Positions 2,007 through 63,393 of a DNA stretch of 64,000 nt are shown piece by piece. Both the position numbers and the translations under genes were made by a program. The notes beneath the pieces are model-generated. The model was not told the origin of the DNA and did no database searches. It worked only from the letters and a program-made list of their open reading frames with translations. The stretch comes from Holophagales bacterium. GTDB lineage: Bacteria > Acidobacteriota > Thermoanaerobaculia > Multivoradales > Multivoraceae. The first letter of the stretch is position 1, and the number at the start of each line of letters is the position of its first letter. Location of the stretch: the NCBI GenBank assembly GCA_009836625.1, contig VXVC01000004.1, positions 641,037 to 705,036 of the forward strand, given 5' to 3'.

Positions 2007-2039
2007 GGGAGAGGGCTTCGGCTCTCTCCCTTTTTCTTT
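2007..2039 (+). terminator. Intrinsic terminator: 10-bp GC-rich stem with UUCG tetraloop (GGGAGAGGGC-TTCG-GCTCTCTCCC) followed by TTTTTCTTT
   Basis: Read directly from the sequence, immediately downstream of the stop at 1948-1950. The same element recurs after both paralogs. Confidence 0.75.
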
Positions 2040-2118
2040 GCCTGGGAACGCCGGCTCACGCCGGCCGATCCAACGATCTGGATCTGCTACACCGTTTCAA
2101 GCCTAGTCCGCTCCGTCC

Positions 2119-2146
2119 TTGACATCCTTCCAGCCCGTCATATAGT
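2119..2146 (+). promoter_or_regulatory. Sigma70-like promoter: TTGACA - 16 nt - TATAGT, ~45 nt upstream of the receptor gene start
   Basis: Consensus -35 and -10 hexamers with canonical spacing. A near-identical arrangement lies upstream of the third paralog (6012-6039), and the 5'UTR box GATCCGAGGAGRAGCTC-ATGAAGCGACTCGC is shared. Confidence 0.6.
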
Positions 2147-2189
2147 GCCCTTCTCGCTTTCCCTACAACTTGATCCGAGGAGAAGCTCT

Positions 2190-5894: not shown

Positions 5895-5942
5895 GCCGGA
5901 ACGACAGAACCTGGGGGTTTCGGCCCCCGGTGCAAGGGATCA

Positions 5943-5977
5943 GGGGAGAGGGCTTCGGCACTCTCCCCTTTTCTTTC
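5943..5977 (+). terminator. Intrinsic terminator, copy 2 of the conserved hairpin (GGGGAGAGGGC-TTCG-GCACTCTCCCC + TTTTCTTTC)
   Basis: Same element as at 2007-2039 with one compensated/mismatched stem position. Lies just after the stop at 5892-5894. Confidence 0.75.
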
Positions 5978-6011
5978 AGCCGTCCAACATTCTGGATCCC
6001 GGCCCACTCCT

Positions 6012-6039
6012 TTGACATTCATCCGGGGGCTCCTATAGT
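6012..6039 (+). promoter_or_regulatory. Sigma70-like promoter: TTGACA - 16 nt - TATAGT upstream of the third receptor paralog
   Basis: Same architecture and spacing as 2119-2146; the conserved 5'UTR box and RBS GAGGAG follow. Confidence 0.6.
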
Positions 6040-6079
6040 GGACGGCACACCTTCCGACCAATGATCCGAGGAGGAGCTC

Positions 6080-14266: not shown

Positions 14267-14305
14267 GAGGCCGGAAGTCTAACGCCGCGATAGGATCGCC
14301 ACACC

Positions 14306-16630: not shown

Positions 16631-16659
16631 GAAACCGGCCTCGACTGAGGAGCGGAACG

Positions 16660-18342: not shown

Positions 18343-18463
18343 CTGGAGGTCGTCGGACAGCGGGCGCGGCGGATCCGCTCTGATGAGATCGGTTGCCTTG
18401 CTTGGGGAGATCCGGAGTGGTTCGCCAAGGGAACGAGTGGCACCGAACTTGCGTTGACAACGA

Positions 18464-21436: not shown

Positions 21437-21442
21437 ACAGGG

Positions 21443-24400
21443 ATGATCTCCACCTGCTCACGGCACCGTCTGCTGCCGGCGGTTGTCGCGCTACTCGCTG
21501 CGCTCTGCCCCGCCGCCGCCACGGCGCAGATGCCGAGCCGCGAGGCCGAGATCATCCTCCAGGTCCCCGCCTCGGGGCCGCTCCGGGAGTTCGATGCCAG
21601 AAGCTTCGAGATCCTCGAGAACGGCGCGACCCGGGAGATTCTGTCGGTCGAACCGGTGGCGGAGCGGTGGCGAATCGTCATCTACTTCGATCTGCCTGGC
21701 TCGACTCCCGAGGGCATCGAGGCGGCGGCGGCGGCCGTCGGCAACGCCGCCGATGCTCTGGTGGCGCTCGGCGACGTCGAGATGATCGCAGCCGACCGGA
21801 TCGCAGAGGTCGAGCTCGCCCCGACCGCGAACGCCGGGGCGGTACGGGCGGCCGCCGCGGCAGTCGCCACGCGGGCCGGCGCAGCGGGCGTCCTGCTGGA
21901 CAGGCGCCGGGACCTGCGGGCGGCCGCCGACGCACGCTCAGGCGACCCGGACGCGGACGCTCTCCGTACAGCCGACCTGCTCGAGGGAGTCCTGCTGGAG
22001 CTGGACACGCTGCGCTGGCAGCGGGCCAACCTGCTCGAGTCGATCGAGGGCGCATCCTGGGCAGCCGGGCAGCCGCGGGCCCTGTTCCTCGTGCGAGACG
22101 CGACCGACCTGAACGCCGACGCTTTCGCTGAGGAGCTGCTGGGCGAGCCGACGCCCGCCTTCGAACGCGCAGCCCTGAGCGAGCAGCGACGGCAGCGCAG
22201 CCTGACTCGCACCGTCGCGGCGCTCGGATGGCGCGTCTACTCCCTTCAGCTTGCCCCGGCGGCCCAGGAGGTTGACGATCTCCTGCCAGGACGCGTTGAG
22301 GCATCACGGGCGTTCTCGCATGCCGCCGGCGGCGAGGTGCTCGCCGACGCCGCCGAGCTCGCCGCGGCAACTGAGCGCCTGCGGGCGTCCTGGCGGGTCC
22401 GCTACCGTTCGTCCGGCACCCGCGACGGGGCCGCTCATCCGGTCGACGTGCGCATCGCCTCCGATGCCGCGTCCAGCGGACCTCCGCCTGACGTTTCCGC
22501 GCGCCGCTGGGCCACGGTCGCGGCGCCGGCTGACCTGGTGGCCCTGCGCGCCAGCCGCGCCCTCGACGCCTTGAGCCGGGACGGCGACCGGTCCATCCTC
22601 GGAGGCAACGGCGAACTCGCGATCCGCGGCGTTCTCCTGCCCCAGGGCATCCAGTCGACCACCGAGGGCGCGCCCGCCGAGTTCGTCACGCTCGACGGTC
22701 TCGCCACCGTCGGCGCCGATCCCCCGCAGTCGAGCGACGCCCTCCGGCTCACGGTCTACGGCCGCGGCCTGGACGCGCCAGCCTTCCTGCTTCATCGCGG
22801 GGGAAACGGAACCCGACTCAGGGAAGGTGCATGGCGGTTTCGCACTCTCTTCGACCTGCCGGTGGCCATCGACGAACTCGTTCTGATGGTCGAGGACCTG
22901 CGCAACGACCGCTGGCAGGTCGAATTTCTCGAGACCGCGTCAAGCCCTCTCGATGACCGCGGCGACATCGAGCTACTCGTGCCGGAGCCCGGTCCCGATT
23001 CGCTGACCGCCCGCCGCACCGAAACCGAGATCCTCACGGCGGCCAGGGCCGCTGCCCGCCGGGCCGGCTGGGCCGGCGGCTCCCGTGGTCCCCGCCGCGC
23101 GAACATCCTCGACCCCGGCCCCGGCTCCAGCCTGGTCCGTCTGATCCCGCCCCGCGGCGAGCGGTCGGGGCTCAGCGGCAGGAAGTCGTTCAGTACGGTG
23201 ACCACGAGCGACGTGGTGCGCCGGGTGGAGTTCTACCTCGACGGCGAGCAGGTCTTCGACGATCGACGCAAGCCGTTCCAGACCACCATCGACCTGGGGC
23301 CGGAGGCGGTGCCTCACACGATCCGGATCGTCGCCTACGACCGCTCGGATCGCTGGCTGAGCGAGGACGAACTGACGATCAATGAGCACCAAACCCGGGC
23401 CGGAGTCGGCATCGCGGCGGTGGAAGAGGAGCCCGGAGGCCGCTACGCCGTTGAAGCCCGGGTGGAGCTGGCCGGTGGTCGCGTTCTCGACCGGGTCGAG
23501 TTCTACCGGAACGACCGTCTCGCGGCCACCATGACGCGGCCTCCGTTCCGCACCGTTCTGCCCGGTCCCGCGCTGCCCGGCGCCGACTTCGCCCGCGTCG
23601 CCGTCCACCTGGACGACGGCACGATCATCGAAGACGTGGAGTTTCTCTCGGCCGATACGCCCATGGCCGAGACCGTGGTCAACCTGGTCGAGGTCTACGT
23701 CATCGTGAACGACGACGAGGGCAAGCCGATCACTACCCTCGAGCCCGACGACTTCGTGCTGAAAGCGGGTCGAAGAGAGATCCCGATCGAGCGCTTCGCG
23801 GTTGCCGAAGACGTGCCCCTGGTGCTTGGCCTGGCGGTCGACAGTTCCCAGAGCATGTGGGCCCTGATGCCGGACACCCGGCAGGCGGCGGCCCGCTTCC
23901 TCGGCAACACCCTGACCCGGATCGACCAGGCGTTCGTCGTCGACTTCGACACCCGGCCGCGCCTGCTCTCCGACACCACCGCCGACGTCGGCGAACTCAT
24001 CGGCACCCTGGGGAAGATCCAGGCAGACGGGTTCACCGCCCTCTACGACGCCATGCAGTTCTGCCTTGTGCATCTCGCCCGAGACCAGGGGCGCCGTGCC
24101 CTCGTCGTGCTGACCGACGGCGACGACTACGGCAGCCAGAGCGGCTACCGCCGGACCTTCCGGACGGCTGGGAACACCGGCGTGCCGATCTACGTCATCT
24201 CGATGAGCCAGGGCGAGGATCGCAGGGGACGCGGTCCCCGCAAACTGGACCTGGAAGCGATCACGAAGGCGAGCGGCGGCCGCGTGTACTACGTCGCCAG
24301 CATGGAGGCCGTGTTCTGGGCCTACGGGCATATCGGCGAGGAACTGCGCAGCCAGTACATGCTCGGCTACTCGACGAGCGAGCCGCTGACTCCCCGCGAG

Positions 24401-24481
24401 GTGCAGTCCATCAAGGTGGAACTGCGGGACCAGCGGAACGATCGCGAAGTGCGGATGACCGTCGGCCGCGGCCGAGGCTAG
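21443..24481 (+). CDS. Large secreted protein with C-terminal von Willebrand factor A domain (paralog of 18464-21436), 1012 aa
   Basis: Signal peptide (LCPAAATAQ). C-terminal VWA domain with MIDAS LAVDSSQSM, shared blocks LEPDDFVLKAGRREIPIERF, RALVVLTDGDDYGS and GGRVYYV. Starts 6 nt after the paralog's stop. Confidence 0.7.
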   Translation: MISTCSRHRLLPAVVALLAALCPAAATAQMPSREAEIILQVPASGPLREFDARSFEILENGATREILSVEPVAERWRIVIYFDLPGSTPEGIEAAAAAVGNAADALVALGDVEMIAADRIAEVELAPTANAGAVRAAAAAVATRAGAAGVLLDRRRDLRAAADARSGDPDADALRTADLLEGVLLELDTLRWQRANLLESIEGASWAAGQPRALFLVRDATDLNADAFAEELLGEPTPAFERAALSEQRRQRSLTRTVAALGWRVYSLQLAPAAQEVDDLLPGRVEASRAFSHAAGGEVLADAAELAAATERLRASWRVRYRSSGTRDGAAHPVDVRIASDAASSGPPPDVSARRWATVAAPADLVALRASRALDALSRDGDRSILGGNGELAIRGVLLPQGIQSTTEGAPAEFVTLDGLATVGADPPQSSDALRLTVYGRGLDAPAFLLHRGGNGTRLREGAWRFRTLFDLPVAIDELVLMVEDLRNDRWQVEFLETASSPLDDRGDIELLVPEPGPDSLTARRTETEILTAARAAARRAGWAGGSRGPRRANILDPGPGSSLVRLIPPRGERSGLSGRKSFSTVTTSDVVRRVEFYLDGEQVFDDRRKPFQTTIDLGPEAVPHTIRIVAYDRSDRWLSEDELTINEHQTRAGVGIAAVEEEPGGRYAVEARVELAGGRVLDRVEFYRNDRLAATMTRPPFRTVLPGPALPGADFARVAVHLDDGTIIEDVEFLSADTPMAETVVNLVEVYVIVNDDEGKPITTLEPDDFVLKAGRREIPIERFAVAEDVPLVLGLAVDSSQSMWALMPDTRQAAARFLGNTLTRIDQAFVVDFDTRPRLLSDTTADVGELIGTLGKIQADGFTALYDAMQFCLVHLARDQGRRALVVLTDGDDYGSQSGYRRTFRTAGNTGVPIYVISMSQGEDRRGRGPRKLDLEAITKASGGRVYYVASMEAVFWAYGHIGEELRSQYMLGYSTSEPLTPREVQSIKVELRDQRNDREVRMTVGRGRG

Positions 24482-47101: not shown

Positions 47102-48304
47102 TCAGAGTTCGGCGGCGACCGGCGAACCGTCGCTCAGGCTGTCGCTCGGATAGACCACGACCTGCTCGCCGGGTTCGAGGCCGCCGAGAACCTGGGCTTC
47201 CTGCGCGTTCCGCTCACCGACCTCGATCGTCCGGAGGGCGGCCCGGCCGCGCTCGACCGCGAAGACCGCCCAGTTCTCGTCGCGCCGGAAGAGCGCACCC
47301 GTCGGCGCCTTCAGTTCGTCCCCGCTCTCCCAGACGACGACCCGGGTTTCAACCCGGAATCCGTCGCCGAGACCGGCCCAGACAGCAGGCGGATCGACGA
47401 TGTCGATGACCACGTTCACGCGCTGCTCCTCGACGCCGAGCGCCGAGATCTTCGTGAAGCCCGAGGGTTCCACCCGCCGCAACCGGCCCAGCAACGGGCG
47501 GTCGCCGCCCCAGCGATCGATCAGCACGCGCTGACCCGACCGCATCCGGACGGCGTCCTTCGACAGATAGTCCGTGACCACCTCGATCTGCGCCGGATCG
47601 CCAACTTCGAGCAGGGCTTCGCCGGCCGGCACGACGGACTCGCTTTCGCGCACGCGACGCAGCACGACGCCCGAAACGGGCGACACGATCCGGATCGTCG
47701 CCCCATTCAGGTCGTCCGCGCTCTCGGCGCTGAACTGCAGCAGACGGACCCGCGCCGCCTGCAACTCGCTGCGGGCCGTGCGCACCGCGTACTCCGCCGC
47801 TTCCAGCGCTTCCTGCCGGGTGTCGAGGTCGAGCTGGGCACTTTCCATCGTCTCGACCGAAACGATTCCCTCCTGGCTGAGCCGCAGGTAGCGCCCCGCC
47901 TCCGAGCGCGAGTAGACGAGTTCAGCCGCCGCGCGCTCGTAGTGCGCCTCGGCCTGACCGAGCGCGGCGGTCGCGGTCTGCACCACCGCCTCCGCCTCGG
48001 CTCGGCTACGGGCGTCGAGGAGCACCGGGGCCGAGGGCAGGAAGACCGCGAGCACCGTCTCGCCCGCGACCACCGCGTCGCCGGGCTCGAGTTCGATCCG
48101 CAGGACCCGGCCGGCGAGCGGCGCCGAGATGACGAACCGATCCCGGACCCTCGTCTCGCCCTCGTCGTCGACGGTCACCTGGAGCGGACCTCGCGCCACC
48201 TCGGCCAGTTCCGCCGCGACCGGCTGCGGGCGCGTGCCGAGGATCACGGCGGCCGCCGCCACAACCAGCCCCACGCCCCACAACACCCAGCGCCGCGTCT
48301 TCAT
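47102..48304 (-). CDS. Efflux transporter periplasmic adaptor (membrane-fusion protein, HlyD/MacA-like)
   Basis: N-terminal TM anchor, coiled-coil hairpin (Ala/Glu/Arg-rich 140-220) and barrel-sandwich and beta-barrel domains. Last gene of the minus-strand array. Confidence 0.8.
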   Translation of the reverse strand: MKTRRWVLWGVGLVVAAAAVILGTRPQPVAAELAEVARGPLQVTVDDEGETRVRDRFVISAPLAGRVLRIELEPGDAVVAGETVLAVFLPSAPVLLDARSRAEAEAVVQTATAALGQAEAHYERAAAELVYSRSEAGRYLRLSQEGIVSVETMESAQLDLDTRQEALEAAEYAVRTARSELQAARVRLLQFSAESADDLNGATIRIVSPVSGVVLRRVRESESVVPAGEALLEVGDPAQIEVVTDYLSKDAVRMRSGQRVLIDRWGGDRPLLGRLRRVEPSGFTKISALGVEEQRVNVVIDIVDPPAVWAGLGDGFRVETRVVVWESGDELKAPTGALFRRDENWAVFAVERGRAALRTIEVGERNAQEAQVLGGLEPGEQVVVYPSDSLSDGSPVAAEL

Positions 48305-48319
48305 CGTCTTCCTTCTCTC

Positions 48320-50689
48320 CTACTCGCGGGTCTTGAGCACCGCGACGAGATCGAGATCATGGAGCTTACGCCGCACCGTCCAGGCCGAGATGGCCATCGA
48401 CCCGAGAACGGTCGCGGCGGAAACCAGGAACGTGCTCGGCTCGACCACCACCGGCAGCCGAAACAGCTCGCTCTCGAAGACGCTCATCACGCCGGTGATC
48501 ATGGCGAAGCCGAGGAGCAGACCAAGCGGAATCGAGGCCAGAGTGAGAATCCCGAGTTCGCCCAGCAGGATCGAGGAGATCTCGCCGCGAGTGAAGCCGA
48601 TCACACGCAGGCTGGCGAGTTCGCGGCTGGTCTCGGACAGCGAGATCCGGGCCGTGTTGTAGATCACCCCGAAGGCGATGATCACCGCGAAGAGCAGGTT
48701 GACGTTCATCATCATGGCCATGTTGTCGAGCATGTAGGTCCGGATGCTCTGGAGCGCGGCACTGCGCAGCGTCGCCCCCGCCACCGCCGGCATCGCCTTC
48801 AGCAGACCGTACAGCCGTTCCTCGGCCAGCGTGTCGATCTTGAGCATCGCCCCGGTGATCGTGTCGTCGCGCCGCACCAGCCGACGGAGCGACTCCTGCT
48901 CCATGTACGCCGTCACGCCGAGCAGGTCGTCGACGGTGTCGGTCAGCACGACCTCGCGCACCGGCCTGGAGTCCTCCATGATCTCGACCACCAGCGTGTC
49001 CCCCGGCTCGACCCGCAGTTGCTCCGCCAGCAACGTGGACAGGACGAGACCCGGCCGGTCGAGCCGGATGGCGCGGTAGTCGAGATCGACCACGCGCCGC
49101 AACCTGGCGTCCGGCGCCAGCGCCTGGATCGCGGTCTGCTTCTGCAGGTGGCCGTTGCGCAACCGCGCCGCGACACCGTTCGTCGGCTCCACCTGGAGCA
49201 CGCCGGAGAGAGCCGCGAGTTCATGGACCGCCCTCCGTTCGACCGGTTCGAAGAAGCTCACCGACAGGTCCTGGCGCTGGACGATGTTGAACTGCACCTC
49301 CAGCAGTTCGTCCATCGAGTCGATCATCGCCCAGCCCACGACCATGATCGCGCCGGCGAAGGCGATGCCGACGATCGACAGGCCTGCGCGTACCGGGCGT
49401 CGCGACAGGTTGCGAAGCACCATCCGCGCCGGCTGCGACAGCCATCGCCGCACGCCCAGCCGTTCGAACAGGGACACCCGGAAAGTCTCGGGCGCCGCCG
49501 GGCGCATCGCTTCGGCGGGCGGCAGCGAGACGACGCTGCGCACCGCGCCCAGCGCGCCAACCGTCGCGGCGGCCAGGCTCACTCCGACGGCGATCAGAAT
49601 GCTCGACGCCGACACGTCGTAGATCAGGAACGGGAACCGGAAGTACTCCATGTAGAGACCGAGCATCGCTTCGGCCAGCAACAGGCCGGCGCCTATCCCG
49701 AGCAGGGTGCCGAAGGCCACCACGACGATGGCCCACTGCACGTAGTGGACACCGAGCCGGAGGTTCGAGTAGCCGAGAGCCTTGAGCGCCGCGATCTGTT
49801 CGCGCTGTACCGCGACCGTTCGCCGCAGAACCACGTTGAGCAGGAACGTGGCCACGGCGAGGAAGATCATGGGGACGAGGAGTCCCATGTTCTCGAGCTG
49901 GGACAACTCGTTCTGGAGGTACCAGTTCGAGGTCTGGTCGGCACGCGGAATCGCGCCCAGGCCCCCGTACGGATCAAGAATCGCGTCGAGTTCGACGATC
50001 ACCGCGCGCTCGAGGCTGGGCGAGCGGTCGACCAGCGTCAGGGCGACGTCGTTGAACCCACCCTCCATCTCGAACGCGGTGGCCAGATGCCGGCGGGTCA
50101 TCCACAGAAAGCCGAAGTGCTTCGGATCCGGGACCAATTCTCCCGGCCCGATGCCGTAGACGAACTCCGGGCTGAGCCCGACACCGACGATCTCCAGTGG
50201 CTGCCGGCGACCGTTGATGACAGCGAACAGGCGATCGCCCAGGTCGAGGCCGTGAGCCTCGGCGAAACGCTCGCCGACGAGGGCCTCCTCCGCCCGGTCC
50301 GGTTCCGGGAACCGCCCGCGGCGCAGCGCAACGTCGTTGAGCGCCGGCCGGCCGCGATCCGGCAGGGAGATCAGGCGTCCGTTGACCGGATCGGTGACTC
50401 CGGGCACGTCCAGCGAGACGCTCACAACCACCCGGGTCTGGACCTGCTTGACTCCCGGGATCGCCGCGATGCGCTCCTCGACCCAGTTGGGGACGCGCTT
50501 GGCGCCGGCGAACACGTCGGCGAAGGCGTAGCGGGTGTAGTAGGCGTCGCGGGTGGTCAGGAGCGAGCCGAACACTCCCTGCGCCATGACCAGCAGCGCG
50601 ATCCCCGACGAGACGACCAGCGCGATCGCCAGTACCTGGGACCGGACGTTCCAGAGGTCGCGCAGGAGTTTGCGGTCGAGGGCTTTCAT
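48320..50689 (-). CDS. ABC transporter permease with duplicated FtsX domains (MacB-like; ADOP-type, Acidobacterial duplicated orphan permease), 789 aa
   Basis: Two repeats each built of a TM helix, a large periplasmic domain and a 3-TM FtsX bundle. N-terminal [13 protein letters not shown] is typical. No fused ATPase. Confidence 0.8.
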
Positions 50690-50693
50690 CCTC

Positions 50694-51430
<737 letters not shown>

Positions 51431-51434
<4 letters not shown>

Positions 51435-53587
51435 GGCAGCTCGATGTCGGGGGGCGCCGCCGACAGCTCGACGATCATCTCCGTGAACTCGCCCGGCACC
51501 GTATCGACCCGGATCATGCCGCCGTGCTCGCGCACGATGTCGGCCGAGAGCGCCAGACCGAGGCCCGTGCCCTGGTCGGTCGGCTTGGTCGTGAAGAAGG
51601 GGTTGAAGATCTTGTCCACGATGTCCTGCGGGATTCCGTCGCCGTTGTCGCGGATCCGGACCTCGACGCCGTCGTCCATCCTTCGCGTCGTCACGGTGAG
51701 CGTCGGCTCGTAGGACTCATCGTCCGTCGTGAGCCGCTTTTCGTTCGTGGCGTAGCAGGCGTTGCCGACCAGGTTGAGGAACACGCGACCGACGTCCTGG
51801 GACACGACCTCCAGGGTGCCCAGGTCCGGATCGAAGTCCTTCTCGATGGTCAGGTTGAACTCCGAGTCGGAAGCTCGGGCGCTGTGGTAGGCGAGCCCGA
51901 TGTGCTCGTCGACCAGGCGGTTGATGTCGGCCTGTTCACGGCCAGCCGCGCCCCGGCCCATCTTCAGCATGTCGGTGACGATCCGGTTGGCCCGCTCGCC
52001 GTGGTTCTGGATCAGCTTCAGGTTCCCGCTCAGGTCCTCGAAGATCTCCCCGATTTCCTCCCGCTGGTCCTCGTTCAGGCTGCCGTCCTCGTTCTCCTTC
52101 ATGATCTCGTCGACCTCTTCGAGGAGTTCCGAGGACACCTCGGAGAAGTTCTTGACGAAGTTGAGAGGGTTCTTGATCTCGTGGGCGACGCCGGCCGTGA
52201 GCTCGCCCAGCGCCGCGAGCTTCTCGCGCATCACGATCTGGTCCTGGGCCTTCTGCAGATCGGCCAGCACGACCTCCAGCTCGTCGTTCTTCTCCTTCAG
52301 TTCGTCCGCTAGCTTCTCGACCAGGTTCAGTCGCTGCACTTCCAGCGCGTGACGGCGGAAGACCTCGAGGGCAGCCGCCATGTCCGCGACCTCGTCCTGG
52401 CCGCCGATGCCGATTTCGGCTTCCAGGTTGCCCTCCGCCATCTCCCGCATGCTGCTCGAAAGCGCCTCGAACCGGCGCACCAGCAGCCGTCCGACGAACA
52501 GCCAACCGATGAAGACCGCTCCGGCGATGCTCAGCACGTTGAGCGCCAGGAGCAGCGCCCGGCCGGTTCTGATGGCCTGGGACGCGGCGTCGGTCGCGGC
52601 ATCGGTACGTGCCTGCGAAGCGGCGACCAGACTCTCGACGTCGCCACCGAGTTCGACGGCCAGGTTCTGGTTCTCCTCCAGCAGCGCCTGCTGCCGGTCG
52701 AGCACGTCGACCTCTTGTCGCCTCAGGTCGAAGGCGGTACGACTCTTCGCCAGCATCTCGCCGAAGAGCGCTTCCAACCGGTCAGAGGTCGCGGTTTCGT
52801 CGATCGCGCTGAGGGCGCGCTCGATACTCGTCGCCGCCGACTCGTACCGCTCCTCGACCGGCTCGATCAGCGGCCGGTCGGTCAGCACCGCCAGACTCTT
52901 CAGGAGCTGATCGATGATCGTGACGTCCTGCTGAAGGCCGACCAGCACGCGGTAGCGGTCGATCTCCGGTTCAGAGAAGTGGACCTCACGGGACGCAGGG
53001 GCAAGCTCGAACGAGCGAAAGCCGGTCATGGCGTAGAACAGTTGGTTGTCGAGAGCAGGCACCAGGAGCACCTCGATCCGGCTGTGGAGCGACTCCAGTT
53101 CCGACCGCAGCGCCTCGCTCTCCGCGCCCAGTTCAAAGCCCTCCGCAACCGACTCCTGGATTGCCGCGATGTTGCCGATGAGCTCTCCGCCACGCGCCTG
53201 GATGCTCACGATCTCCGCGTCGCCGCCAAGGGACTCCTCGGACCCCATTCCCCTGCTCATCAGGTCCTCGAGTTCGCGCTCGAAGGCCCGTTGCGCGGGC
53301 GCCATCTCGACGACCGCCCGAGTCAACTCGTCCTGGTTCGCCGTCGCGGTCAGCCTGGGGCCCGCCGCCACCAGCGTTCCGCTGCCCTGGGCGACGCCGA
53401 AGGCGGCCGCGAGTTCAGGCACCGTTCCCTGGGTGACCCGGTTCTGCGAGTCGCCGACCTGAGCGAAGGCGAACAACGCCACGAGGCTGGCCGCGAGCGT
53501 CAGGGCGGCGGCGCCGCCGATGCCAACGTAGAGCTGCGTGGCGATCCTGAAGCGGGCCTCGGCCAGTCGTCGAAACCACGAGATCAT
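51431..53587 (-). CDS. Sensor histidine kinase with ~260-aa periplasmic domain, HAMP and HisKA/HATPase
   Basis: TM1 ([27 protein letters not shown]), a periplasmic region, then TM2 + HAMP. H-box [22 protein letters not shown], and N/G boxes at the C-terminus (GTGLGLALS). The real start is internal to the six-frame ORF 51431-54034, and the ATG overlaps the SBP stop (ATGA). Confidence 0.85.
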
Positions 53588-54828
53588 TGCTTCACCGCCG
53601 CCTCGAGACGCGTCGCTGGCCGATACCGACCCCGTTCGTCGATCACGGTCAGGAACACGGCGTCCGAACCCTGGTTGTCCCCGTCGCCGAACACGAGGCG
53701 GAAGCCGTTCAGGTCGATCGATCCGGCGTCGCGCAGAGTCTGAATGAAGCGGTCCCGATCGACCGCCGTCCCGCTGCGTTCGAGGGCCTCGATCACCAGA
53801 CGTCCGGCGAGGTAGCCCTCGAACGAGACGAAACCGGGCTCGGCCCCTGGGGTGTGGGCGCGCAGCGCGCGCCGGTAGGCGGTGGCGACCCTCGAGTTCC
53901 GCGCGCTCGGAAACGGCACGACCTGGGTGACGTAGACGCCGGCGCCGCGTGGGCCGAGTTCTTCCGCGAGGGCATTGCTGCCCACGAAGGACAGGGTCAT
54001 GAACACGGGATCCAGGCCGATGTGCCGGGCCCACGCGATCAGGCTCGCCACCGGTTGGTAGGCCCCCACGATGATGACGGCCTCGGGCCGCCCCACCTCG
54101 ATGTCGACGATGGCCGTCTTGACGGCGGTCGTGTTGCGCGGATAGACGCCGATCGCGACCGCCTCCATTCCCCGCCTGTCGAATGCGGCGCGAACGCCCG
54201 CCAGGCCGGCACGCCCGAAGGAATCGTTCTGGATGACCACCGCGATCCGCTCGATGCCCAGATCCCTCGTCAGTCGCTCCACCATCTCCTCCGTCTCCTG
54301 GGCGTAGGAGGCGCGGAGGTTGATCACATGCGGCTCGCTGCGGAGAAAGCCCGCGCCCGTGAACGGAGCGATGTACGGCACACCCGCCTCTTCGGCCACC
54401 GGCACCGCGGAGCGGGAGGTCGGCGTACCGACGCCGCCGACCAGCGCGAACACACCCTCGTCCTCGATCAGGCGGCGCGTGTTCGTGATCGCGGCCTCCG
54501 GCTCATAGCCGTCGTCCACCGTGACGAGTTCCAGGCGCCGGCCATGCACGCCGCCGGCATCGTTGGCCTCCTTGAACGCCGCCTGGATGCCGAGCCGCAT
54601 CCCTCTGCCCAGTTCGGCAGCCGGACCACTGAAGGCGGCGGACTGTCCGAACAGGATGCGCTCGGCCGAAACGCCCGGCGTCCCTTCCGGCCCGGTCGGC
54701 GGTGCCGCCGGCTGAGCCGCCAAAGGCGCCGCGGCGAGCAACGCCGCCGCGGCCCAGGCTGACGCCGTCAGAGCTATCTGAGCAGCATGTGCGCGCATCG
54801 CGACCGGCAGTCCCGTGCCGCGGTTCAA
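53584..54828 (-). CDS. Periplasmic substrate-binding protein, type I PBP (LivK/branched-chain-amino-acid-binding-like)
   Basis: Signal peptide. PBP1 blocks (ILFGQSAAFSGPAAELGRGMRLGIQAAF, VFALVGGVGTPTS). No cognate permease or ATPase of the Liv type is nearby; it is instead translationally coupled to the histidine kinase. The start is 54828 (ATGA overlap with the upstream gene) or 54798. Confidence 0.75.
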   Translation of the reverse strand: MNRGTGLPVAMRAHAAQIALTASAWAAAALLAAAPLAAQPAAPPTGPEGTPGVSAERILFGQSAAFSGPAAELGRGMRLGIQAAFKEANDAGGVHGRRLELVTVDDGYEPEAAITNTRRLIEDEGVFALVGGVGTPTSRSAVPVAEEAGVPYIAPFTGAGFLRSEPHVINLRASYAQETEEMVERLTRDLGIERIAVVIQNDSFGRAGLAGVRAAFDRRGMEAVAIGVYPRNTTAVKTAIVDIEVGRPEAVIIVGAYQPVASLIAWARHIGLDPVFMTLSFVGSNALAEELGPRGAGVYVTQVVPFPSARNSRVATAYRRALRAHTPGAEPGFVSFEGYLAGRLVIEALERSGTAVDRDRFIQTLRDAGSIDLNGFRLVFGDGDNQGSDAVFLTVIDERGRYRPATRLEAAVKQ

Positions 54829-55244
54829 CTCCGGCGCTTGACCATTGACACGTGGTTGCGGCCGCCCTCGCGGCTGTACGAAGTCTCGTCCATGAGGACC
54901 TTCACGAAGTGGACCCCCAGGCCGCCGATCTGCCGGTCCTGAACTTCCGCATCGAGGTCCGGCTCGGGAGCCTCGTGGAACGGATCGAACGCCTTCCCGC
55001 TGTCGCGAACCTCGATCCGGACCTCGTCGTCGCTCGATGTGACCTCGATCTCGATCTCGCTGCTGCCGGGCTCACCGCCGCCGTGACGCACGACGTTCGT
55101 CGCCACTTCCTCCAGACCGAGAACGATGGCGTAGGTCACATCCTGCGGCCAACCCTCCTCCCGGCCAAGCGCCTCGACGGCCTCCGAGACGCCAGGAAGC
55201 TCTTCGATCCGGTTCGGAACACGGAGGTGGAGGTTGGCGCTCAC
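54825..55244 (-). CDS. RsbW/SpoIIAB-like anti-sigma-factor serine kinase (GHKL ATPase), ~139 aa
   Basis: HATPase_c boxes: EEVATNVVRHGG (N box), VRDSGKAFDP and GGLGVHFV (G boxes). The GTG start overlaps the stop of the upstream RR-PP2C gene (GTGA). Only the C-terminal 139 aa of the six-frame ORF 54825-55883 are real. Confidence 0.75.
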   Translation of the reverse strand: MSANLHLRVPNRIEELPGVSEAVEALGREEGWPQDVTYAIVLGLEEVATNVVRHGGGEPGSSEIEIEVTSSDDEVRIEVRDSGKAFDPFHEAPEPDLDAEVQDRQIGGLGVHFVKVLMDETSYSREGGRNHVSMVKRRS

Positions 55245-56425
55245 TCGTCGGCGATGCGCAAGGTCATGCAAGTCAGATCGTCGAACTGCGGCGCTTCGCC
55301 GGCAAAGTCCTGCACGGCCTGCAGGATCATCTCGGCGGCTTCCCGGGCAGTTGGAGTCCGACCGTCGCCGAACAGACCCTGAAGCGACTCGAGGCCGAAC
55401 TCCTCGTTCGACACGTTGATCGCCTCGGTGACTCCGTCCGTGAAGAAGACGACGAGGTCTCCCGGGCTCAGTCGGACGCTGGCCTGCCCGTACTCGAAGC
55501 CGGGAATCGCCCCGAGGGCGAGGCCGCCCGTCAGTTCGAGTTCCTCCGAGCTCCCGTCGGGGTGGACCACCAGCGGAGGGTTGTGGCCGCCGTTGGAGAA
55601 GGTGAGCAGCCTGGTCGAGGGATCGTAGACGCCGTAGAAGACGGTGACGAACATCGCCGCGTCGTTCGTCTCGTTCAGCAGGTCGTTCACTTCGCGGAGG
55701 ACCGCCCCGGGATCCTCGACGCCGACTGCCGCGCCCTTGAGCAGCGTGCGGCTCGACATCATGAACAGGGCCGCCGGCACGCCCTTGTCCGACACGTCGG
55801 CTACCGCGAGCCCGATCCGCCCCGCATCGAGGTTGATCACGTCGAAGAAGTCCCCCCCGACGTTGCGTGCCGCGTGCATGCAACCGTAGACCTCACACCC
55901 GTCCACATGGGGGAACTTGTCCGGCAGGATGGACTGCTGGATCTTCGTCGCCACATCGAGCTCGTTCTGTATCGCCACCAGCTTGTCGCGCGAGGCGAGC
56001 GCGGCGCGCCACTCGTCGAGATGTCGCAACGTCCGCTCGATCGTGACCTCGAGGTCGGTGAAGTCGATCGGCTTGGTGACGAAGTCGAAGGCGCCGCGGT
56101 TCATGGCGGTGCGGATGTTCTCCATGTCGCCGTAGGCAGAAACGATGACCGAGCGGAGGTCCGTGTTCACCTCCGGGATCTGCTGCAGCAGGGTCAGGCC
56201 GTCCATCTTCGGCATATTGATGTCCGAGAGAACGATGTCGATGTCCTTCTTCTCCGTCAGGACCTCGAGCGCCTCGACGCCGTTGCCGGCGAACTCGAAA
56301 CCGTACTTGCCTCGGCGGATGTGGCGCCGCATGCGCTGGCGAACCAGCCGCTCCAGATCCGGCTCGTCGTCGACAACCAGGATCTTGTAGTCGGGTCTGT
56401 CCCGATCGCCCACCTGGACCGCCAC
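55241..56425 (-). CDS. Response-regulator receiver fused to PP2C/SpoIIE-type serine phosphatase (RsbU-like)
   Basis: Receiver domain: KILVVDDE, phospho-acceptor in IVLSDINMPKMDG, and TKP. PP2C domain: GGDFFDV, ADVSDKGVPAALFM, FTDGVTEA. GTG start. Confidence 0.85.
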   Translation of the reverse strand: MAVQVGDRDRPDYKILVVDDEPDLERLVRQRMRRHIRRGKYGFEFAGNGVEALEVLTEKKDIDIVLSDINMPKMDGLTLLQQIPEVNTDLRSVIVSAYGDMENIRTAMNRGAFDFVTKPIDFTDLEVTIERTLRHLDEWRAALASRDKLVAIQNELDVATKIQQSILPDKFPHVDGCEVYGCMHAARNVGGDFFDVINLDAGRIGLAVADVSDKGVPAALFMMSSRTLLKGAAVGVEDPGAVLREVNDLLNETNDAAMFVTVFYGVYDPSTRLLTFSNGGHNPPLVVHPDGSSEELELTGGLALGAIPGFEYGQASVRLSPGDLVVFFTDGVTEAINVSNEEFGLESLQGLFGDGRTPTAREAAEMILQAVQDFAGEAPQFDDLTCMTLRIADE

Positions 56426-56446
56426 CCCTTCCGCGCTCGAAAACCT

Positions 56447-56782
56447 CTACCCCGCCGCAGCCAGGGCGTCGGCCTGCGTGTCGTAGATCTGGATGATGCG
56501 GTTGAAGCCGCTGATCTCGAACACCGACTGGACGGGATCACTCAACGCGCAGAGAGAGATGCTCACGTTGCGCTGGCCGAGGGTCTTTGCGACCAGCAGG
56601 ACGACCCTCAGGCCGGCGCTGCTGATGTACGCGAGCTGGCCGAGGTCGACGACCACCGCCTGGACGTCCTCGCCGATCGCCCCCTGCAACTGGCGTTCAA
56701 AGTCCTGGGAGTTCGAGCTGTCGACGCGCCCCTCGACTTTGGCCACAAGAACCTTGTCGTGATGATCCACCTGGACGTTCAT
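56447..56782 (-). CDS. STAS-domain anti-sigma-factor antagonist (RsbV/SpoIIAA-like)
   Basis: 111 aa with the conserved phosphorylatable Ser context LAYISSAGLRVVL. The ATG overlaps the transglutaminase stop (ATGA). Confidence 0.8.
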   Translation of the reverse strand: MNVQVDHHDKVLVAKVEGRVDSSNSQDFERQLQGAIGEDVQAVVVDLGQLAYISSAGLRVVLLVAKTLGQRNVSISLCALSDPVQSVFEISGFNRIIQIYDTQADALAAAG

Positions 56783-57687
56783 ACTCTCTGCCTCCCGTTG
56801 CCGTTTCTTCCGCTAAGTCGTGCGCTGTCAACTGCATTCACTATCACATCAACCGCGATTTTCGCATCCCCGGCGCCCTGGAACACCCCCCTTGTTGGAG
56901 AAACGTCGGCATAGTCCCTGCCCGCGGCCACGCGGATGTGTCGCTGATCGCTGAACGTCGTGTTCGTTGGGTCGAAGCCGACCCAGCCGGCCCCCGGAAG
57001 CCAGCATTCTACCCAAGCGTGACTGGCGCCCGCCGTCACGCGTTCGCCGGCTCGTCCCGTGTTGTGGAGATAACCCGACACGTAGCGGGAGGGGACGCCC
57101 CAGGAGCGGCCGATGGCGATCATCAGGTGGGCATAGTCCTGGCACACGCCCCGACCCGATTCCAGCAGGTGCTCGATGGGCGAATCGGCCGCCGTGCTGC
57201 CCGGCTCGTACTCGAAGCGCTCGCGGATCCCGTCGGCCAGGCGGACCAGGCTCTCCATCGGACGTTCCTCCGGACGGAAGCCCTCGCTGCGGACGAAGCG
57301 CTCTAGCGCCAGGGACGGCCGCGCGAGCGCGCTGGGTTCGAGGAAGTGCCAGTACTCCGGCAATTGGCGCAGGCTCCGCAACTCCTCCCAGCCGCCGACC
57401 GCTTCCACGCTCGACGTCGCGGCGAGCTCCGCCCTGAACCGGGACGTGATCACGAGTTCCTCGTGCCGCCGATGGACGTTGAGAACGTGGCGGCGGTTGC
57501 CGAAGCAGTCCCGCTCCGGACTGAGGGAGGCGGCCGGGATCGTCTCGATCTCGAATCGCCGCACCCTCTGGCCCGATGTCCGGGCCGGCCGCAGGCAGAG
57601 CAGCAGAACGCAGCCGCGGACGCTGTCCGAGTACGCGTATCTCGTCCGATGCTCGACGTCGTAACGGAGCCGGCGGGTAGACGTCAC
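56779..57687 (-). CDS. Transglutaminase-like family protein (N-terminal Bact_transglu_N + TGc core)
   Basis: N-terminal LRYDVEHRTRYAYS (typical start of the transglutaminase N domain). Catalytic Cys in GRGVCQDYAHLMIAIGRSWGVPSRYVSGY, with downstream His (SHAWVECW) and Asp (GFDPTN). GTG start assumed, overlapping the alpha-E stop (GTGA). The six-frame ORF 56779-58374 is a frame artefact upstream of the start. Confidence 0.75.
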   Translation of the reverse strand: MTSTRRLRYDVEHRTRYAYSDSVRGCVLLLCLRPARTSGQRVRRFEIETIPAASLSPERDCFGNRRHVLNVHRRHEELVITSRFRAELAATSSVEAVGGWEELRSLRQLPEYWHFLEPSALARPSLALERFVRSEGFRPEERPMESLVRLADGIRERFEYEPGSTAADSPIEHLLESGRGVCQDYAHLMIAIGRSWGVPSRYVSGYLHNTGRAGERVTAGASHAWVECWLPGAGWVGFDPTNTTFSDQRHIRVAAGRDYADVSPTRGVFQGAGDAKIAVDVIVNAVDSARLSGRNGNGRQRV

Positions 57688-58646
57688 CGCAGCGGAGAAT
57701 CCTCGATCGCGTAGTCGACGAAGGCGCCGAGCACGGCGTCGTGCAGATCGCGGGCGGATCGATCGACCCGTTCCAGCAGTTCCTCGGGCGCTGAAGCTTC
57801 CGGCCAGTCGTAGAGGATGAGCGCTTCGGCCCGACCGGCCAACCGCCGGGCAGCGGCGTCGGCTTCGACGCCCGGCCCCCCGCCGAGGCCCCCGAGTTCC
57901 GTCGCCGCGGCCTGCACCGTGGCGAGCACGGATCCCGGCAGGGACGGATCGGCGACCAGCAGATCCAGCACCCGGTCCGGCTTCATCTCGATCCCGTGGA
58001 CGCGGCCGTAGGCCTCCAGAGCGTGGTGGGTGCGCAGCATGCTCGCCCAGCCAAGGGTTCGCCGCTCCGTCTGCCGACTCAGGTCGATCTGAGCCAGCAG
58101 CAGGGGCACCGCGAGCTGCGCTCGCTCGATGGCGCGGCCGAGGCGCATGAACCGCCAGGCAGCGCCGCGGTACATCGTCGCGTCCGCGACGCCGACGAAG
58201 TTGTGGATCTCGCTGCGGGTCTGTGCGTAGAAGACCTCCGGCGTCCTCCAGATGTCGACGGCCTCGAGATCCCGAATCCGCAGCCAGGCGGCGTTCAGGC
58301 AGGTCCACATCTCGCCGCTGATGCAATGACGCATCTGGCGGGCGTTCTCGCGCCCGCTCGCTATGGCGCTCCACACCGAATCAGGGTTCGAACGCTCGAA
58401 GGTCAGGTCGTCCGCCAGGGTGAAGGAGTCCGCCAGGGCGAACTCGTCCGCCTCCGGCAGGAACTGCTCGCCCGGTGGCGGCAACCGCTTCATGCAACGG
58501 TAGATCCGTTTCCAGCCGAAGTGGATCTCCTCGACCGAACGGTCGACCAGAAACTGCACCTGCAACTCCAGCAGGCGGCTCAGATAGCCGGCCCTGGCCA
58601 GGTACCGGGCCATCCAGTAGACGCCCTGGGCGCTGCGCGCGAGCAT
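57684..58646 (-). CDS. Alpha-E domain protein (DUF403)
   Basis: 320-aa all-helical protein beginning MLARSAQGVYWMARYLARAGYLSRLLE (canonical alpha-E N-terminus). Always found 3' of a circularly permuted ATP-grasp gene. The start codon shares 1 nt with the ATP-grasp stop. Confidence 0.75.
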   Translation of the reverse strand: MLARSAQGVYWMARYLARAGYLSRLLELQVQFLVDRSVEEIHFGWKRIYRCMKRLPPPGEQFLPEADEFALADSFTLADDLTFERSNPDSVWSAIASGRENARQMRHCISGEMWTCLNAAWLRIRDLEAVDIWRTPEVFYAQTRSEIHNFVGVADATMYRGAAWRFMRLGRAIERAQLAVPLLLAQIDLSRQTERRTLGWASMLRTHHALEAYGRVHGIEMKPDRVLDLLVADPSLPGSVLATVQAAATELGGLGGGPGVEADAAARRLAGRAEALILYDWPEASAPEELLERVDRSARDLHDAVLGAFVDYAIEDSPLR

Positions 58647-60088
58647 CAGAGGTCGACCACCCAGAGGTCCTTGCCGCCGCCGCCCTGGCTCGAATTCACG
58701 ACCAGGCTGCCCCTTCGCAGGGCGACCCGGCAGAACGCCCCGGGTACGATGCGGGTCTCGTTCCCGGTCAGCACGAAGGGCCGGAGATCGACGTGGCGCG
58801 GCTCCGCGTGGCCGTCGATCAGGCAGGGCGACCGCGACAGCGCCAGGGTGGGCTGCGAAATGAAGTCCGCGGGATCGGCCTGGAGCGTCTTCGCGTACTC
58901 GTCCCGCTCTTCCGGCGTCGAGTGCGGACCGACCAGCATGCCGTAGCCACCCGACTCGCCGACCCGCTTGACCACCAGGCGCTCCAGGTTGTCCAGCGTG
59001 TACTCGAGATCCTCCGGCCGCCGGCAGAGGCGGGTGTCGACGTTCTGGAGCAGGGGCTCCTCGCCCAGGTAGTAGCGCACCATGTCGGGCACGTAGGCGT
59101 AGACGCTCTTGTCGTCGGCCACGCCCGTTCCCGGAGCGTTGGCCAGGGCCACGTTGCCGCGCTTGAACGCGTTCATCAGGCCCGGAACGCCCAGCAAGGA
59201 GTCCTCGCGGAAGACGAGCGGGTCGAGGAAATCGTCGTCCACGCGTCGGTAGATCACGTCGACGCGCCGGAGGCCGGAAGTCGTCCGCATGTAGACGAAC
59301 CCGTCGTTGACCAGCAGGTCCTGCCCTTCGACGAGTTCGGCGCCGATCTCGTGAGCCAGGAACATGTGCTCGTAGAACGCCGAGTTGTAGGTGCCGGGAG
59401 TGAGCAAAGCCAGGCACGGATCCGGGCGGCCGCCGGGCGACAGCTCGCAGAGGGTCTGCCGCAACAGGCTGCCGTACTGCTCGACGTCCTGAACCCGGGA
59501 ACGCCGGTAGAGCCGGCGAAGGCCGGCCTTCACCGCCTTGCGATTCGCGATCATGTACGACACGCCCGAGGGCACGCGCAGGTTGTCCTCCAGCACCATG
59601 AAGCCCTCGTGCGTACGGACGATGTCCGTGCCGCAGATCGTCACCCAGACATCATTGGGCACATTGACTCCGCGCATCGCCAGCCGGTACTGCGGGCAGC
59701 CGAGGATGACGTCGGCGGGAATCACGCCGTCCCTGACGACGCGGCAGTCGCCGTAGACGTCGGCGAGGAACAGGTTGAGCGTCCGGATCCGCTGCACCAG
59801 ACCGGCTTCGAGTTCCCGCCACTCCGCCAGGGCGAGCAGGCGCGGCACGCAGTCGATCGGGATGATCCGTTCCTCCGCCTCCTCGTCGCCGTAGACGGTG
59901 AAGGTGATCCCCTCCTGGGAGAACGAGCGCGTCACCCGTTCCTGGATCGTGTTCAGGTCGTCGTCGGGCAGTTCCCTGAGCGCCTCGACGACCGCCCGGC
60001 AGTGATCGCGAGGCTCTCCCTCCCCGACGAACATCTCGTCGTAGATCGCAGGATCGAAGTCGTAGAGGCTGAAGTCCACCGGACCCAC
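58646..60088 (-). CDS. Circularly permuted type-2 ATP-grasp protein
   Basis: 480 aa with conserved CP-ATP-grasp blocks (GITFTVYG, RIIPIDCVPR, GTYNSAFYEHMFLAHEIGAELVEG, YRRVDDDFLDP, VALANAPGTGVADDKSVYAYVPDMV). GTG start; first gene of the array. Confidence 0.8.
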   Translation of the reverse strand: MGPVDFSLYDFDPAIYDEMFVGEGEPRDHCRAVVEALRELPDDDLNTIQERVTRSFSQEGITFTVYGDEEAEERIIPIDCVPRLLALAEWRELEAGLVQRIRTLNLFLADVYGDCRVVRDGVIPADVILGCPQYRLAMRGVNVPNDVWVTICGTDIVRTHEGFMVLEDNLRVPSGVSYMIANRKAVKAGLRRLYRRSRVQDVEQYGSLLRQTLCELSPGGRPDPCLALLTPGTYNSAFYEHMFLAHEIGAELVEGQDLLVNDGFVYMRTTSGLRRVDVIYRRVDDDFLDPLVFREDSLLGVPGLMNAFKRGNVALANAPGTGVADDKSVYAYVPDMVRYYLGEEPLLQNVDTRLCRRPEDLEYTLDNLERLVVKRVGESGGYGMLVGPHSTPEERDEYAKTLQADPADFISQPTLALSRSPCLIDGHAEPRHVDLRPFVLTGNETRIVPGAFCRVALRRGSLVVNSSQGGGGKDLWVVDL

Positions 60089-60285
60089 TCGAGCGGTTTG
60101 CCGAACGGGCGTATCCTACAGGTACAGAAAGAGTAAGCCCTCCTGCCGAAGGTTGCGGGCAGACTGGGGCGACCGGCCGCTTGGACGCCGCGGCCCTCCG
60201 CCCCGTATCATCCTGTAAGCCGCCGGCGAAGCGCCCCCCAAGACCCGCCGCGGTCGGACCTCAATTCACATCAAGGAGCACGAAG
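60089..60285. promoter_or_regulatory. Divergent promoter region between the 11-gene minus-strand array and the pilin-like gene
   Basis: This is the only sizeable non-coding gap flanking the array. It contains a locally AT-richer stretch (ACAGGTACAGAAAGAGTAAG) and RBS AAGGAG 8 nt before the pilin-like ATG. No -35/-10 could be assigned with confidence. Confidence 0.4.
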
Positions 60286-62874: not shown

Positions 62875-63393
62875 CTAGGGCGCTCCTCCTTCTTCCGCGG
62901 AAGACGCCTCTTCCCCGGGAGGAAGGGCCTCGGTCGGCGGATCGTCGAAGCGCTTGTAGTTCCTCCCGTAGTCCGGCCGCGTGCGGCGATGGCATACGAC
63001 GCAGGACATGTAGACCTGCTCGTTCAAGGCGATCAGCGCGTCCAGGTCCTGCTCGAGGGCTGCCTCGTAGGCCGCGACGCCCGCATCGAACATCAGACGG
63101 GCGTCGCGCATCCACTCGTCGCGGTCGCCGATCACGCGGCTCGGCATCATGATCAGATTGGCCGACTCGGCGAGGAGGAGCGCCTGCGCCTGCAGCTCGT
63201 TCCACTCGACCTCGTTGGTCGGGGCCCGACTCTCGACGTAGAGGATGGCGTCGGAGGCCGGATACATGAGCTTGATCATCAGTTCGCTCATCGTTCCGAT
63301 CGGTTCCGGCTCGGGAACCGGTCCATCGTCCCGCGCGGCCGCCGCGGCCGCGAGGCCGGCAACGAGCGCGGCGACTACGATCTTTCGGGCCAT
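62875..63393 (-). CDS. Class II c-type cytochrome (cytochrome c'/c-556-like four-helix bundle), periplasmic
   Basis: Signal peptide. Single C-terminal heme site CVVCHRR, with helical sequence upstream. Confidence 0.55.
   Translation of the reverse strand: MARKIVVAALVAGLAAAAAARDDGPVPEPEPIGTMSELMIKLMYPASDAILYVESRAPTNEVEWNELQAQALLLAESANLIMMPSRVIGDRDEWMRDARLMFDAGVAAYEAALEQDLDALIALNEQVYMSCVVCHRRTRPDYGRNYKRFDDPPTEALPPGEEASSAEEGGAP

Follow-up and report, generated by a model that had tools for sequence, protein, structure and literature searches.

What does a partner-switching module control when no sigma factor gene lies beside it? The question is raised by a stretch of 64,000 nucleotides from a Holophagales (Acidobacteriota) metagenome-assembled genome (MAG; contig VXVC01000004.1, positions 641,037 to 705,036; G+C content ~68%), called the window here and always meant at its full length. 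In it a STAS-domain protein, a phosphatase with receiver and PP2C domains (REC-PP2C) and an RsbW-like kinase are encoded in a row. The unit of conservation is five genes, encoding STAS, REC-PP2C, the RsbW-like kinase, a Peripla_BP_6 binding protein and a TorS-like HAMP histidine kinase. We favour, though not strongly, a reading in which the triad is the cytoplasmic half of this five-gene, laterally mobile signalling cassette, with a target that would be non-sigma, nitrogen-related and not adjacent to it. Sigma-less partner switches are a recurring puzzle, as their outputs are mostly unknown, and the cassette is an unusually clean case: a fixed unit with a defined extracellular input, many natural replicates and statistically strong nitrogen-linked neighbours as candidate targets.

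An intact partner-switching triad

The three genes follow one another on the minus strand in the order STAS, REC-PP2C, RsbW-like kinase (lengths in amino acids, aa):

56447-56782, minus strand: STAS anti-sigma-factor-antagonist homologue, 111 aa (PF01740, E=2.4e-20)
55241-56425, minus strand: receiver plus PP2C (SpoIIE/RsbU-type) phosphatase, 394 aa (PF00072, E=8e-25; PF07228, E=1.6e-51)
54825-55244, minus strand: RsbW/SpoIIAB-type GHKL serine kinase, 139 aa (PF13581, HATPase_c_2, E=1.6e-28)

A first-pass annotation of this DNA, made from the sequence alone, had described a complete SpoIIAA/SpoIIE/SpoIIAB-type triad in this order, and we found its coordinates to be exact and the domains and residues intact. 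The STAS protein scored above the family cut-off of TIGR00377 (81.2 against 53.45 bits; NCBIfam), and HMMER aligned its Ser55 with the phospho-serine of SpoIIAA (1th8; the Ser58 position in SpoIIAA numbering). Ser55, in the motif YISSAGLR, is the predicted phospho-acceptor, and the motif was unchanged in 21 of 22 cassette STAS sequences.

Aligned across 14 homologues, REC-PP2C showed no variation at the receiver residues D19, D20, D68, S96 and K118, bearing out the earlier claim of a receiver-fused phosphatase with an intact aspartate pocket; Asp68 is the predicted phospho-acceptor. The metal-binding motifs of the PP2C domain (GGDF.D, DVSDKG, TDGVTEA and DD.T) were likewise invariant. The nearest solved structure is the Pseudomonas aeruginosa REC-PP2C 3eq2 (E=2e-26), and the protein is not an RssB equivalog, scoring 113 bits with NF045505 against a cut-off of 700. 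The RsbW-like kinase matched RsbW (6m36) and SpoIIAB best in NCBIfam and the PDB, with scores far under the equivalog cut-offs (46 versus 145 bits for NF003144, 40 versus 155 for TIGR01924 and 35 versus 135 for TIGR01925), and the core residues of its N-box (EE..N), G1 (D.G..F.P) and G2 (GGLG) motifs were kept in at least 90% of 20 orthologues. With catalytic and phospho-acceptor residues intact, the triad therefore looks enzymatically competent. Near-identical proteins from Acidobacteriota/Holophagales MAGs are labelled 'ATP-binding protein', 'STAS domain-containing protein' and 'SpoIIE family protein phosphatase' by NCBI/IMG.

The cassette recurs in about ten phyla

The cassette turned up at 21 independent loci, which represent about ten phyla and were drawn from the neighbourhoods of five homologues, from a scan of species representatives of the Genome Taxonomy Database (GTDB), and from tblastn searches with the window proteins, on whose hits genes were then called locally and clustered. 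The genes for REC-PP2C, the RsbW-like kinase, the binding protein and the histidine kinase were adjacent and co-directional, and the STAS gene was either the first gene or convergent just past the kinase. Local gene calling and clustering identified only the five cassette families as common to all or nearly all loci. Identity to the window proteins was 54-69% for REC-PP2C, 51-70% for the binding protein and 40-60% for the histidine kinase, with median pairwise identities within the clade of 61%, 59% and 52%, respectively. The first-pass annotation had called the module an orphan, which understates a conserved unit that includes the binding protein and kinase. Its proposal that the co-operonic histidine kinase is the partner of the phosphatase gained support from their being kept together across these loci, which makes phosphotransfer between the two probable.

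REC-PP2C homologues number in the thousands, the best 120 all being at least 66% identical, and the exact kinase protein is shared by 14 public metagenome contigs, a 5.07-Mb contig (ENA ERZ25069412, ctg854003_929x_c) among them. More distant REC-PP2C homologues (43-48% identity, mainly from Bacteroidota) were found without the binding protein and kinase, so that the cassette loci form a discrete clade, from which we left these homologues out. A truncated Gemmatimonadaceae contig (locus L031; loci carry an L prefix throughout) encodes a REC-PP2C homologue at 56% identity and is too short to show the remaining cassette.

A putative sensor half

The other two cassette genes in the window follow directly downstream of the triad:

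53584-54798, minus strand: Peripla_BP_6 binding protein (Pfam, E=4e-65)
51431-53587, minus strand: membrane histidine kinase, 718 aa (Pfam, NCBIfam)

The binding protein, of the LivJ/UrtA superfamily, has an N-terminal hydrophobic, signal-like segment (residues 8-28), and no cognate permease or ATPase for it is present. It is ~50% identical to PDB 4kv7. Relatives of 4kv7, one of them from a Rhodopirellula isolate and one from a different genome, show translational coupling to histidine kinases with other domain architectures (PAS or hybrid); no HAAT-type transporter genes were seen beside these relatives. As they are coupled to kinases and not to transporters, the family apparently serves kinases as a co-sensor, on the pattern of TorT/TorS, and by this analogy we predict that the cassette protein is the periplasmic co-sensor of its kinase. 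We had also looked among the 4kv7 relatives for clues to the ligand or regulon; they supported a sensory role and gave no ligand. The weak similarity to LivJ/UrtA fits an amino-acid-, urea- or amide-like ligand, and is no proof of one.

In the histidine kinase, two transmembrane segments flank a TorS-like extracytoplasmic domain of ~295 aa, followed by HAMP, HisKA (HEIKNP, with His469) and HATPase_c domains, as assigned by Pfam, NCBIfam and hydropathy; the protein has neither a receiver nor an HPt domain. The resemblance to TorS rests on PF21689 (E=9.5e-8) and on TIGR02956, which aligns over residues 21-444 with a score below its cut-off.

No linked sigma factor

That the window contains no sigma factor gene, as stated in the first-pass annotation, was confirmed in two ways. 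Pfam found no sigma-70 or sigma-54 domain in 58 window open reading frames (ORFs), picked by length and third-position G+C (GC3) so that all long high-GC3 ORFs were included, and phmmer with five sigma seeds (RpoE, SigW, SigB, SigF and RpoD) found no match among all six-frame window ORFs of at least 50 aa. Within 10 kb of the 21 cassette loci, no sigma gene was found by phmmer, nor by Pfam annotation of the neighbouring genes. In four non-cassette loci the same phmmer search did detect sigma genes, a positive control showing that the method works. Recurrent small neighbours of the cassette, which we had suspected of being hidden sigma factors, were identified as GPP34, DUF502, DinB and glyoxalase proteins.

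Nitrogen-related neighbours

We compared the genes around the cassette with those around 61 non-cassette loci from the same scan. An ammonium transporter gene (Amt) was present in 7 of the 21 cassette loci and in none of the 61 controls (Fisher p=3e-5), and a triad of ATP-grasp, Alpha-E and transglutaminase genes lay beside the cassette in another count of 7/21 versus 0/61. Any nitrogen-linked neighbour (Amt, GlnK, GlnE or the ATP-grasp triad) occurred at 13 cassette loci and at no control (Fisher p=5e-10), these being values for cassette loci that are not phylogenetically independent. Amt lay immediately upstream of STAS or downstream of the kinase, or within an ATP-grasp-Amt-Alpha-E operon, and one locus (L021) has an amt-glnK-STAS operon. 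Five cassette-type Amt genes were 69-74% identical across loci and had no adjacent glnK. In both Rhodobacterales loci, GlnE is divergent from REC-PP2C and an FGase-family gene lies beside STAS; a nucleobase permease is a neighbour in L017.

The ATP-grasp triad, an accessory, recurrent neighbour, is absent in an 80%-identical acidobacterial relative. The Anbu-type operon, of which this triad is a part, is reported to be upregulated in Pseudomonas putida under nitrogen limitation (PMC5666114). We found no Anbu/proteasome domain in the window ORFs scanned, though the three partner families are present.

Two loci carry additional STAS genes. In the Latescibacterota locus L017 (9362-18615), the STAS-RsbW pair is duplicated and its two copies are separated by a xanthine/uracil permease gene, and in L015 (15467-20016) a second STAS paralogue heads an ATP-grasp-Amt-Alpha-E operon convergent with the cassette.

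Probable lateral spread and hosts

Besides the Acidobacteriota of the window, the cassette occurs, by MAG labels, in Dehalococcoidia/Chloroflexota, Latescibacterota, Binatia, Thermodesulfobacteriota, Alphaproteobacteria (including Paracoccaceae and Rhodobacteraceae), Gammaproteobacteria (Ca. Azotimanducaceae and Ca. Azophilus) and, within Actinomycetota, Ca. Poriferisodalis (Acidimicrobiia). Nearest relatives were often found in another phylum: a Latescibacterota-Alphaproteobacteria pair shared 70% identity in REC-PP2C and 66% in the kinase, and in the REC-PP2C comparison the window protein paired with Chloroflexota at 68%. The neighbour-joining tree was star-like, and identity within Dehalococcoidia was no higher than between phyla. 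We read this combination of cross-phylum nearest relatives and undistinguished within-class identity as pointing to a cassette that has spread laterally as one piece.

Many of the hosts are apparently sponge symbionts, a view that draws on names and on the set of host phyla and not on sample metadata. The set of host phyla is typical of high-microbial-abundance sponges. The bin names RHO2_, CAR3_ and COS4_ match sponge species, and contigs are labelled ENGE20-1. The sponge species matching those bin names were studied in work that reported lateral transfer among sponge symbionts and did not mention the cassette (PMC8163846). One host genus is Poriferisodalis, and the family Poriferisodalaceae is sponge-associated (PMC11706023). 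Full-text literature searches for the cassette in sponge symbionts found no description of it. If the inference about habitat is true, a regulatory gene set, and not a metabolic or defensive one, is being exchanged laterally among sponge symbionts, and it could indicate what is sensed inside the host.

Several neighbours recur around the cassette in these genomes. L012 and L013 encode the same cassette protein, and L012 (15287-16612) has a DDE_Tnp_1_4 transposase between the histidine kinase and ammonium transporter genes. A GPP34 (PF05719) gene adjoins the cassette in three phyla (L016 8001-8657, L017 8519-9181 and L029 501-1154), assigned by Pfam for the L016 member and through blastp clustering for the other two; a recent report associates the GPP34 family with sponge symbiosis (PMC11706023). 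In three Dehalococcoidia loci (L018 14994-15713, L020 15126-15866 and L022 15114-16034), a DUF502 membrane-protein gene is convergent directly after the kinase, with the L018 member assigned by Pfam and those of L020 and L022 by blastp clustering.

A proposed mechanism and its alternatives

Taken together, these observations suggest how a signal might pass through the cassette. The binding protein would capture a ligand from outside the cell, probably some small compound that contains nitrogen, and, by analogy with TorT/TorS, dock on the periplasmic domain of the kinase. The kinase would autophosphorylate on His469 and pass the phosphate to Asp68 of REC-PP2C, the sole receiver of the cassette, as the conserved linkage of the two genes suggests. 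Phosphorylation of the receiver would then alter the activity of the PP2C domain on phosphorylated Ser55 of STAS, the same serine that the RsbW-like kinase would phosphorylate, both activities being predicted from homology and from intact residues. Dephosphorylated STAS would bind the RsbW-like kinase or a further target, and either STAS or the released RsbW-like protein would act post-translationally, in the style of RbaV, SypA, HsbA and All4160. The target would most probably belong to nitrogen acquisition or assimilation, with Amt, GlnK/GlnE and the nitrogen-limitation-associated ATP-grasp/Alpha-E/transglutaminase system as the candidates.

A non-sigma output is favoured because none of the 21 loci has a linked sigma gene and because the cassette crosses phyla as a self-contained unit. 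Precedents of sigma-less partner switches with a STAS protein as output are consistent with this by analogy (PMC3999984). A more specific version, which we consider unlikely as it stands, would make the cassette a laterally exchanged nitrogen sensor of sponge symbionts, in which STAS/RsbW gates the GlnK-less Amt and/or GlnE together with the ATP-grasp triad, so that control would be independent of PII, based on phosphorylation and set by an extracellular, possibly host-derived, ligand.

Several points weigh against a non-sigma, nitrogen-related target. At eight of the 21 loci no neighbour is nitrogen-related, and Amt is missing from the window itself. Linkage to such neighbours may partly reflect co-transfer instead of function, the loci being non-independent. 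The unit itself varies at two loci: STAS is absent within 10 kb of the other four genes in L019, and the STAS of L020 (9662-9943) has an arginine in place of the phospho-acceptor serine (YISRAGL). The best matches of the RsbW-like kinase, moreover, are bona fide anti-sigma kinases. Finally, several systems described as orphan have reportedly been tied later to conserved sigma or anti-sigma factors: CrsR/CrsA to RpoS, HsbA to FlgM and chlamydial RsbW to sigma-66.

The last two points lead to the alternative that survives best, a classical anti-sigma circuit in which the RsbW-like kinase sequesters an unlinked sigma-70-family factor, perhaps a primary or stationary-phase one, and dephosphorylated STAS frees it; the regulon could then include nitrogen scavenging. 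We regard this as a serious rival, though less probable than the main reading. The 139-aa kinase finds its best family and structure matches in RsbW and SpoIIAB, yet these matches lie far under the equivalog cut-offs (46 versus 145 bits for the highest). That the STAS protein passes the cut-off of the anti-sigma-antagonist superfamily, that a conserved sigma factor as target would be compatible with lateral transfer, and that the cassette itself encodes no DNA-binding output would all suit such a circuit. Against it stand the lack of any sigma gene within 10 kb at 21 loci in about ten phyla or in the 64-kb window, and the comparable systems of Rhodobacter capsulatus and Nostoc punctiforme, which yielded no sigma partner.

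A second alternative places the target within the operon that surrounds the cassette in the window. The triad is embedded in a tightly packed minus-strand operon of 11 genes (47102-60079), in the order circularly permuted ATP-grasp, Alpha-E, transglutaminase, STAS, REC-PP2C, RsbW-like kinase, Peripla_BP_6, HAMP histidine kinase, ABC ATPase, double-FtsX permease and membrane-fusion protein. The six genes flanking the cassette are:

58646-60079, minus strand: circularly permuted ATP-grasp protein (Pfam, E=1e-152)
57684-58646, minus strand: Alpha-E protein (Pfam, E=2e-58)
56779-57687, minus strand: transglutaminase-like protein (Pfam, E=6e-27)
50694-51431, minus strand: ABC ATPase of a MacB-type exporter (Pfam, NCBIfam)
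48320-50689, minus strand: double-FtsX permease of the MacB-type exporter (Pfam, NCBIfam)
47102-48304, minus strand: membrane-fusion protein of the MacB-type exporter (Pfam, NCBIfam)

The first-pass annotation had the triad joined to its flanking genes by GTGA and ATGA overlaps, which proved partly right. An ATGA at 56779-56782 does join the transglutaminase stop to the STAS start, and the GTGA at 55241-55244 is internal to the triad, joining the PP2C stop to the start of the RsbW-like kinase. The overlap of the RsbW-like kinase with the binding-protein gene, however, depends on a TTG start at 54828, and public gene calls use an ATG at 54798, 27 nucleotides further on. Another ATGA joins the binding-protein stop to the start of the histidine kinase. 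A sigma-70 search found no promoter-like site inside the 13-kb operon, and terminator-like matches within it were weak and at chance frequency (4 found versus 5.6 expected); this fits a single transcript and is otherwise uninformative. A search for sigma-54 promoters (TGGCAC-N5-TTGC) gave 12 matches versus 15 expected, none of them upstream of the operon, and Rfam and tRNA scans of the window gave no matches.

The 5.07-Mb contig (L002), which is 95% identical to the window, had first been taken as a second genomic context of the operon; blastn revealed the same neighbourhood with two indels, one on each side of the operon. The window alone has the segment 43282-47084, with extra MFS, Rieske and luciferase genes, and the other indel lies at 60093-60168; relative to the window, L002 carries extra PKD and 599-aa genes at 2330-5154. 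Being the same neighbourhood with two indels, L002 is not evidence of mobility.

In this alternative, which we consider improbable, the switch would gate the MacB-type exporter, or would form part of a loop in which a peptide made by the ATP-grasp/transglutaminase proteins is exported by the pump and sensed by the binding protein and kinase. The tight packing and overlaps of the 11 genes, with no promoter-like site and only weak terminator-like matches among them, would suit it. So would the link between cassette and pump, which is kept in acidobacterial relatives down to 80% identity (L002 and L097-L099), even where the ATP-grasp triad has been lost, and has a loose counterpart in the Binatia locus L025, where HlyD-family and ABC-ATPase genes follow STAS. 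That counterpart apart, the pump was absent beside the cassette outside the acidobacterial lineage, at ~19 other cassette loci; it is a lineage-specific accessory, and a switch that is universally conserved is unlikely to have a lineage-specific target. Nor was there a precursor-peptide gene or any other sign of a secreted product.

The remaining possibility, that common signalling domains lie together here by accident or through decay and share no function, appeals to the abundance of STAS, PP2C and HATPase_c_2 genes in many genomes and is effectively refuted by gene order, translational coupling and catalytic residues that are all kept across phyla at 54-69% identity to the window protein.

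Other features of the window

Four further features lie outside the operon. Three tandem, very large CarboxypepD_reg + Plug + OMP_b-brl_4 (TonB-dependent-receptor-like) paralogues occupy 1-9760, the first cut by the window edge. At 14294-18138, a PSCyt1/PSCyt2/PSD1 protein is followed by a DUF1501 protein, a pair typical of Planctomycetes and found here in an Acidobacteriota MAG. Two tandem paralogues of ~1000 aa with Big_7 and VWA_2 domains lie at 18458-24481. At 62875-63393 on the minus strand there is a 172-aa ORF, called as a gene on the public scaffold too, with no Pfam match.

Comparison with known systems

The first-pass annotation had counted only a few partner switches that work without a sigma factor; such systems are better documented than that, and include Rba, HcyA-D, HmpWUV, SypE/A, HsbR/A and HenR/All4160. 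On the input side, the cassette is a putative counterpart of the binding-protein-dependent sensor kinases TorT/TorS (and LuxP/LuxQ): a binding protein predicted to be secreted is encoded beside a kinase whose helical periplasmic domain looks like the TorS sensor, and a transporter partner is missing. TorS is a hybrid kinase feeding the DNA-binding regulator TorR, unlike the cassette kinase, which scores below the TorS equivalog cut-off; the cassette binding protein belongs to another family, Peripla_BP_6.

On the side of the switch, the closest architecture is that of the Bacillus cereus RsbK-RsbY-RsbV-RsbW-SigB pathway. Its kinase is a cytoplasmic or membrane hybrid and, unlike that of the cassette, has no binding-protein co-sensor; sigB lies in the operon, whereas no sigma gene is linked to the cassette in 21 loci. 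The triad architectures are the same, with a histidine kinase acting on a receiver-fused PP2C (RsbY) that acts on a STAS protein, which RsbW phosphorylates (PMC3999984). In N. punctiforme, hcyA-D form a cluster in the same order (STAS antagonist, RsbU-like phosphatase, anti-sigma-like kinase, histidine kinase), and HcyC and HcyA interact, with no sigma partner obtained in a two-hybrid assay; HcyD differs in being a multi-sensor GAF/PAS hybrid kinase without a secreted binding protein (PMC9127174). The RbaV, RbaW and RbaY proteins of R. capsulatus are RsbV/W/Y-like and have no nearby sigma gene, and genetics there point to the STAS protein as the output of the switch, acting on gene-transfer-agent expression; in contrast to the cassette, rbaY is unlinked to rbaVW, and no kinase or binding protein has been assigned (PMC3999984).

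In Pseudomonas HptB-HsbR-HsbA, Vibrio fischeri SypE-SypA and Anabaena HenR/All4160, as in the cassette, a two-component input sets STAS phosphorylation through a PP2C/kinase pair, and dephosphorylated STAS acts on non-sigma targets in motility, biofilm formation or polysaccharide synthesis (cited in PMC3999984; bioRxiv 10.64898/2026.04.08.717354). HsbR and SypE differ in that kinase and phosphatase are fused, and the inputs of these systems are others (Hpt relay). For HenR/All4160, direct control of an enzyme is reported (bioRxiv 10.64898/2026.04.08.717354). The Anbu-type operon, encoding circularly permuted ATP-grasp, Alpha-E, transglutaminase and Anbu proteins, shares its first three families with the genes upstream of the cassette in the window, where an Anbu peptidase gene is missing; the passages of its description to which we refer mention neither a partner-switching cassette nor a link to Amt (PMC5666114).

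The Rba, HcyA-D and HenR/All4160 precedents thus mean that sigma-less partner switching with two-component input is already established. What appear to be new here are the TorS-like input that depends on a binding protein, the fixed unit of five genes, its distribution across phyla and its nitrogen-linked neighbourhood.

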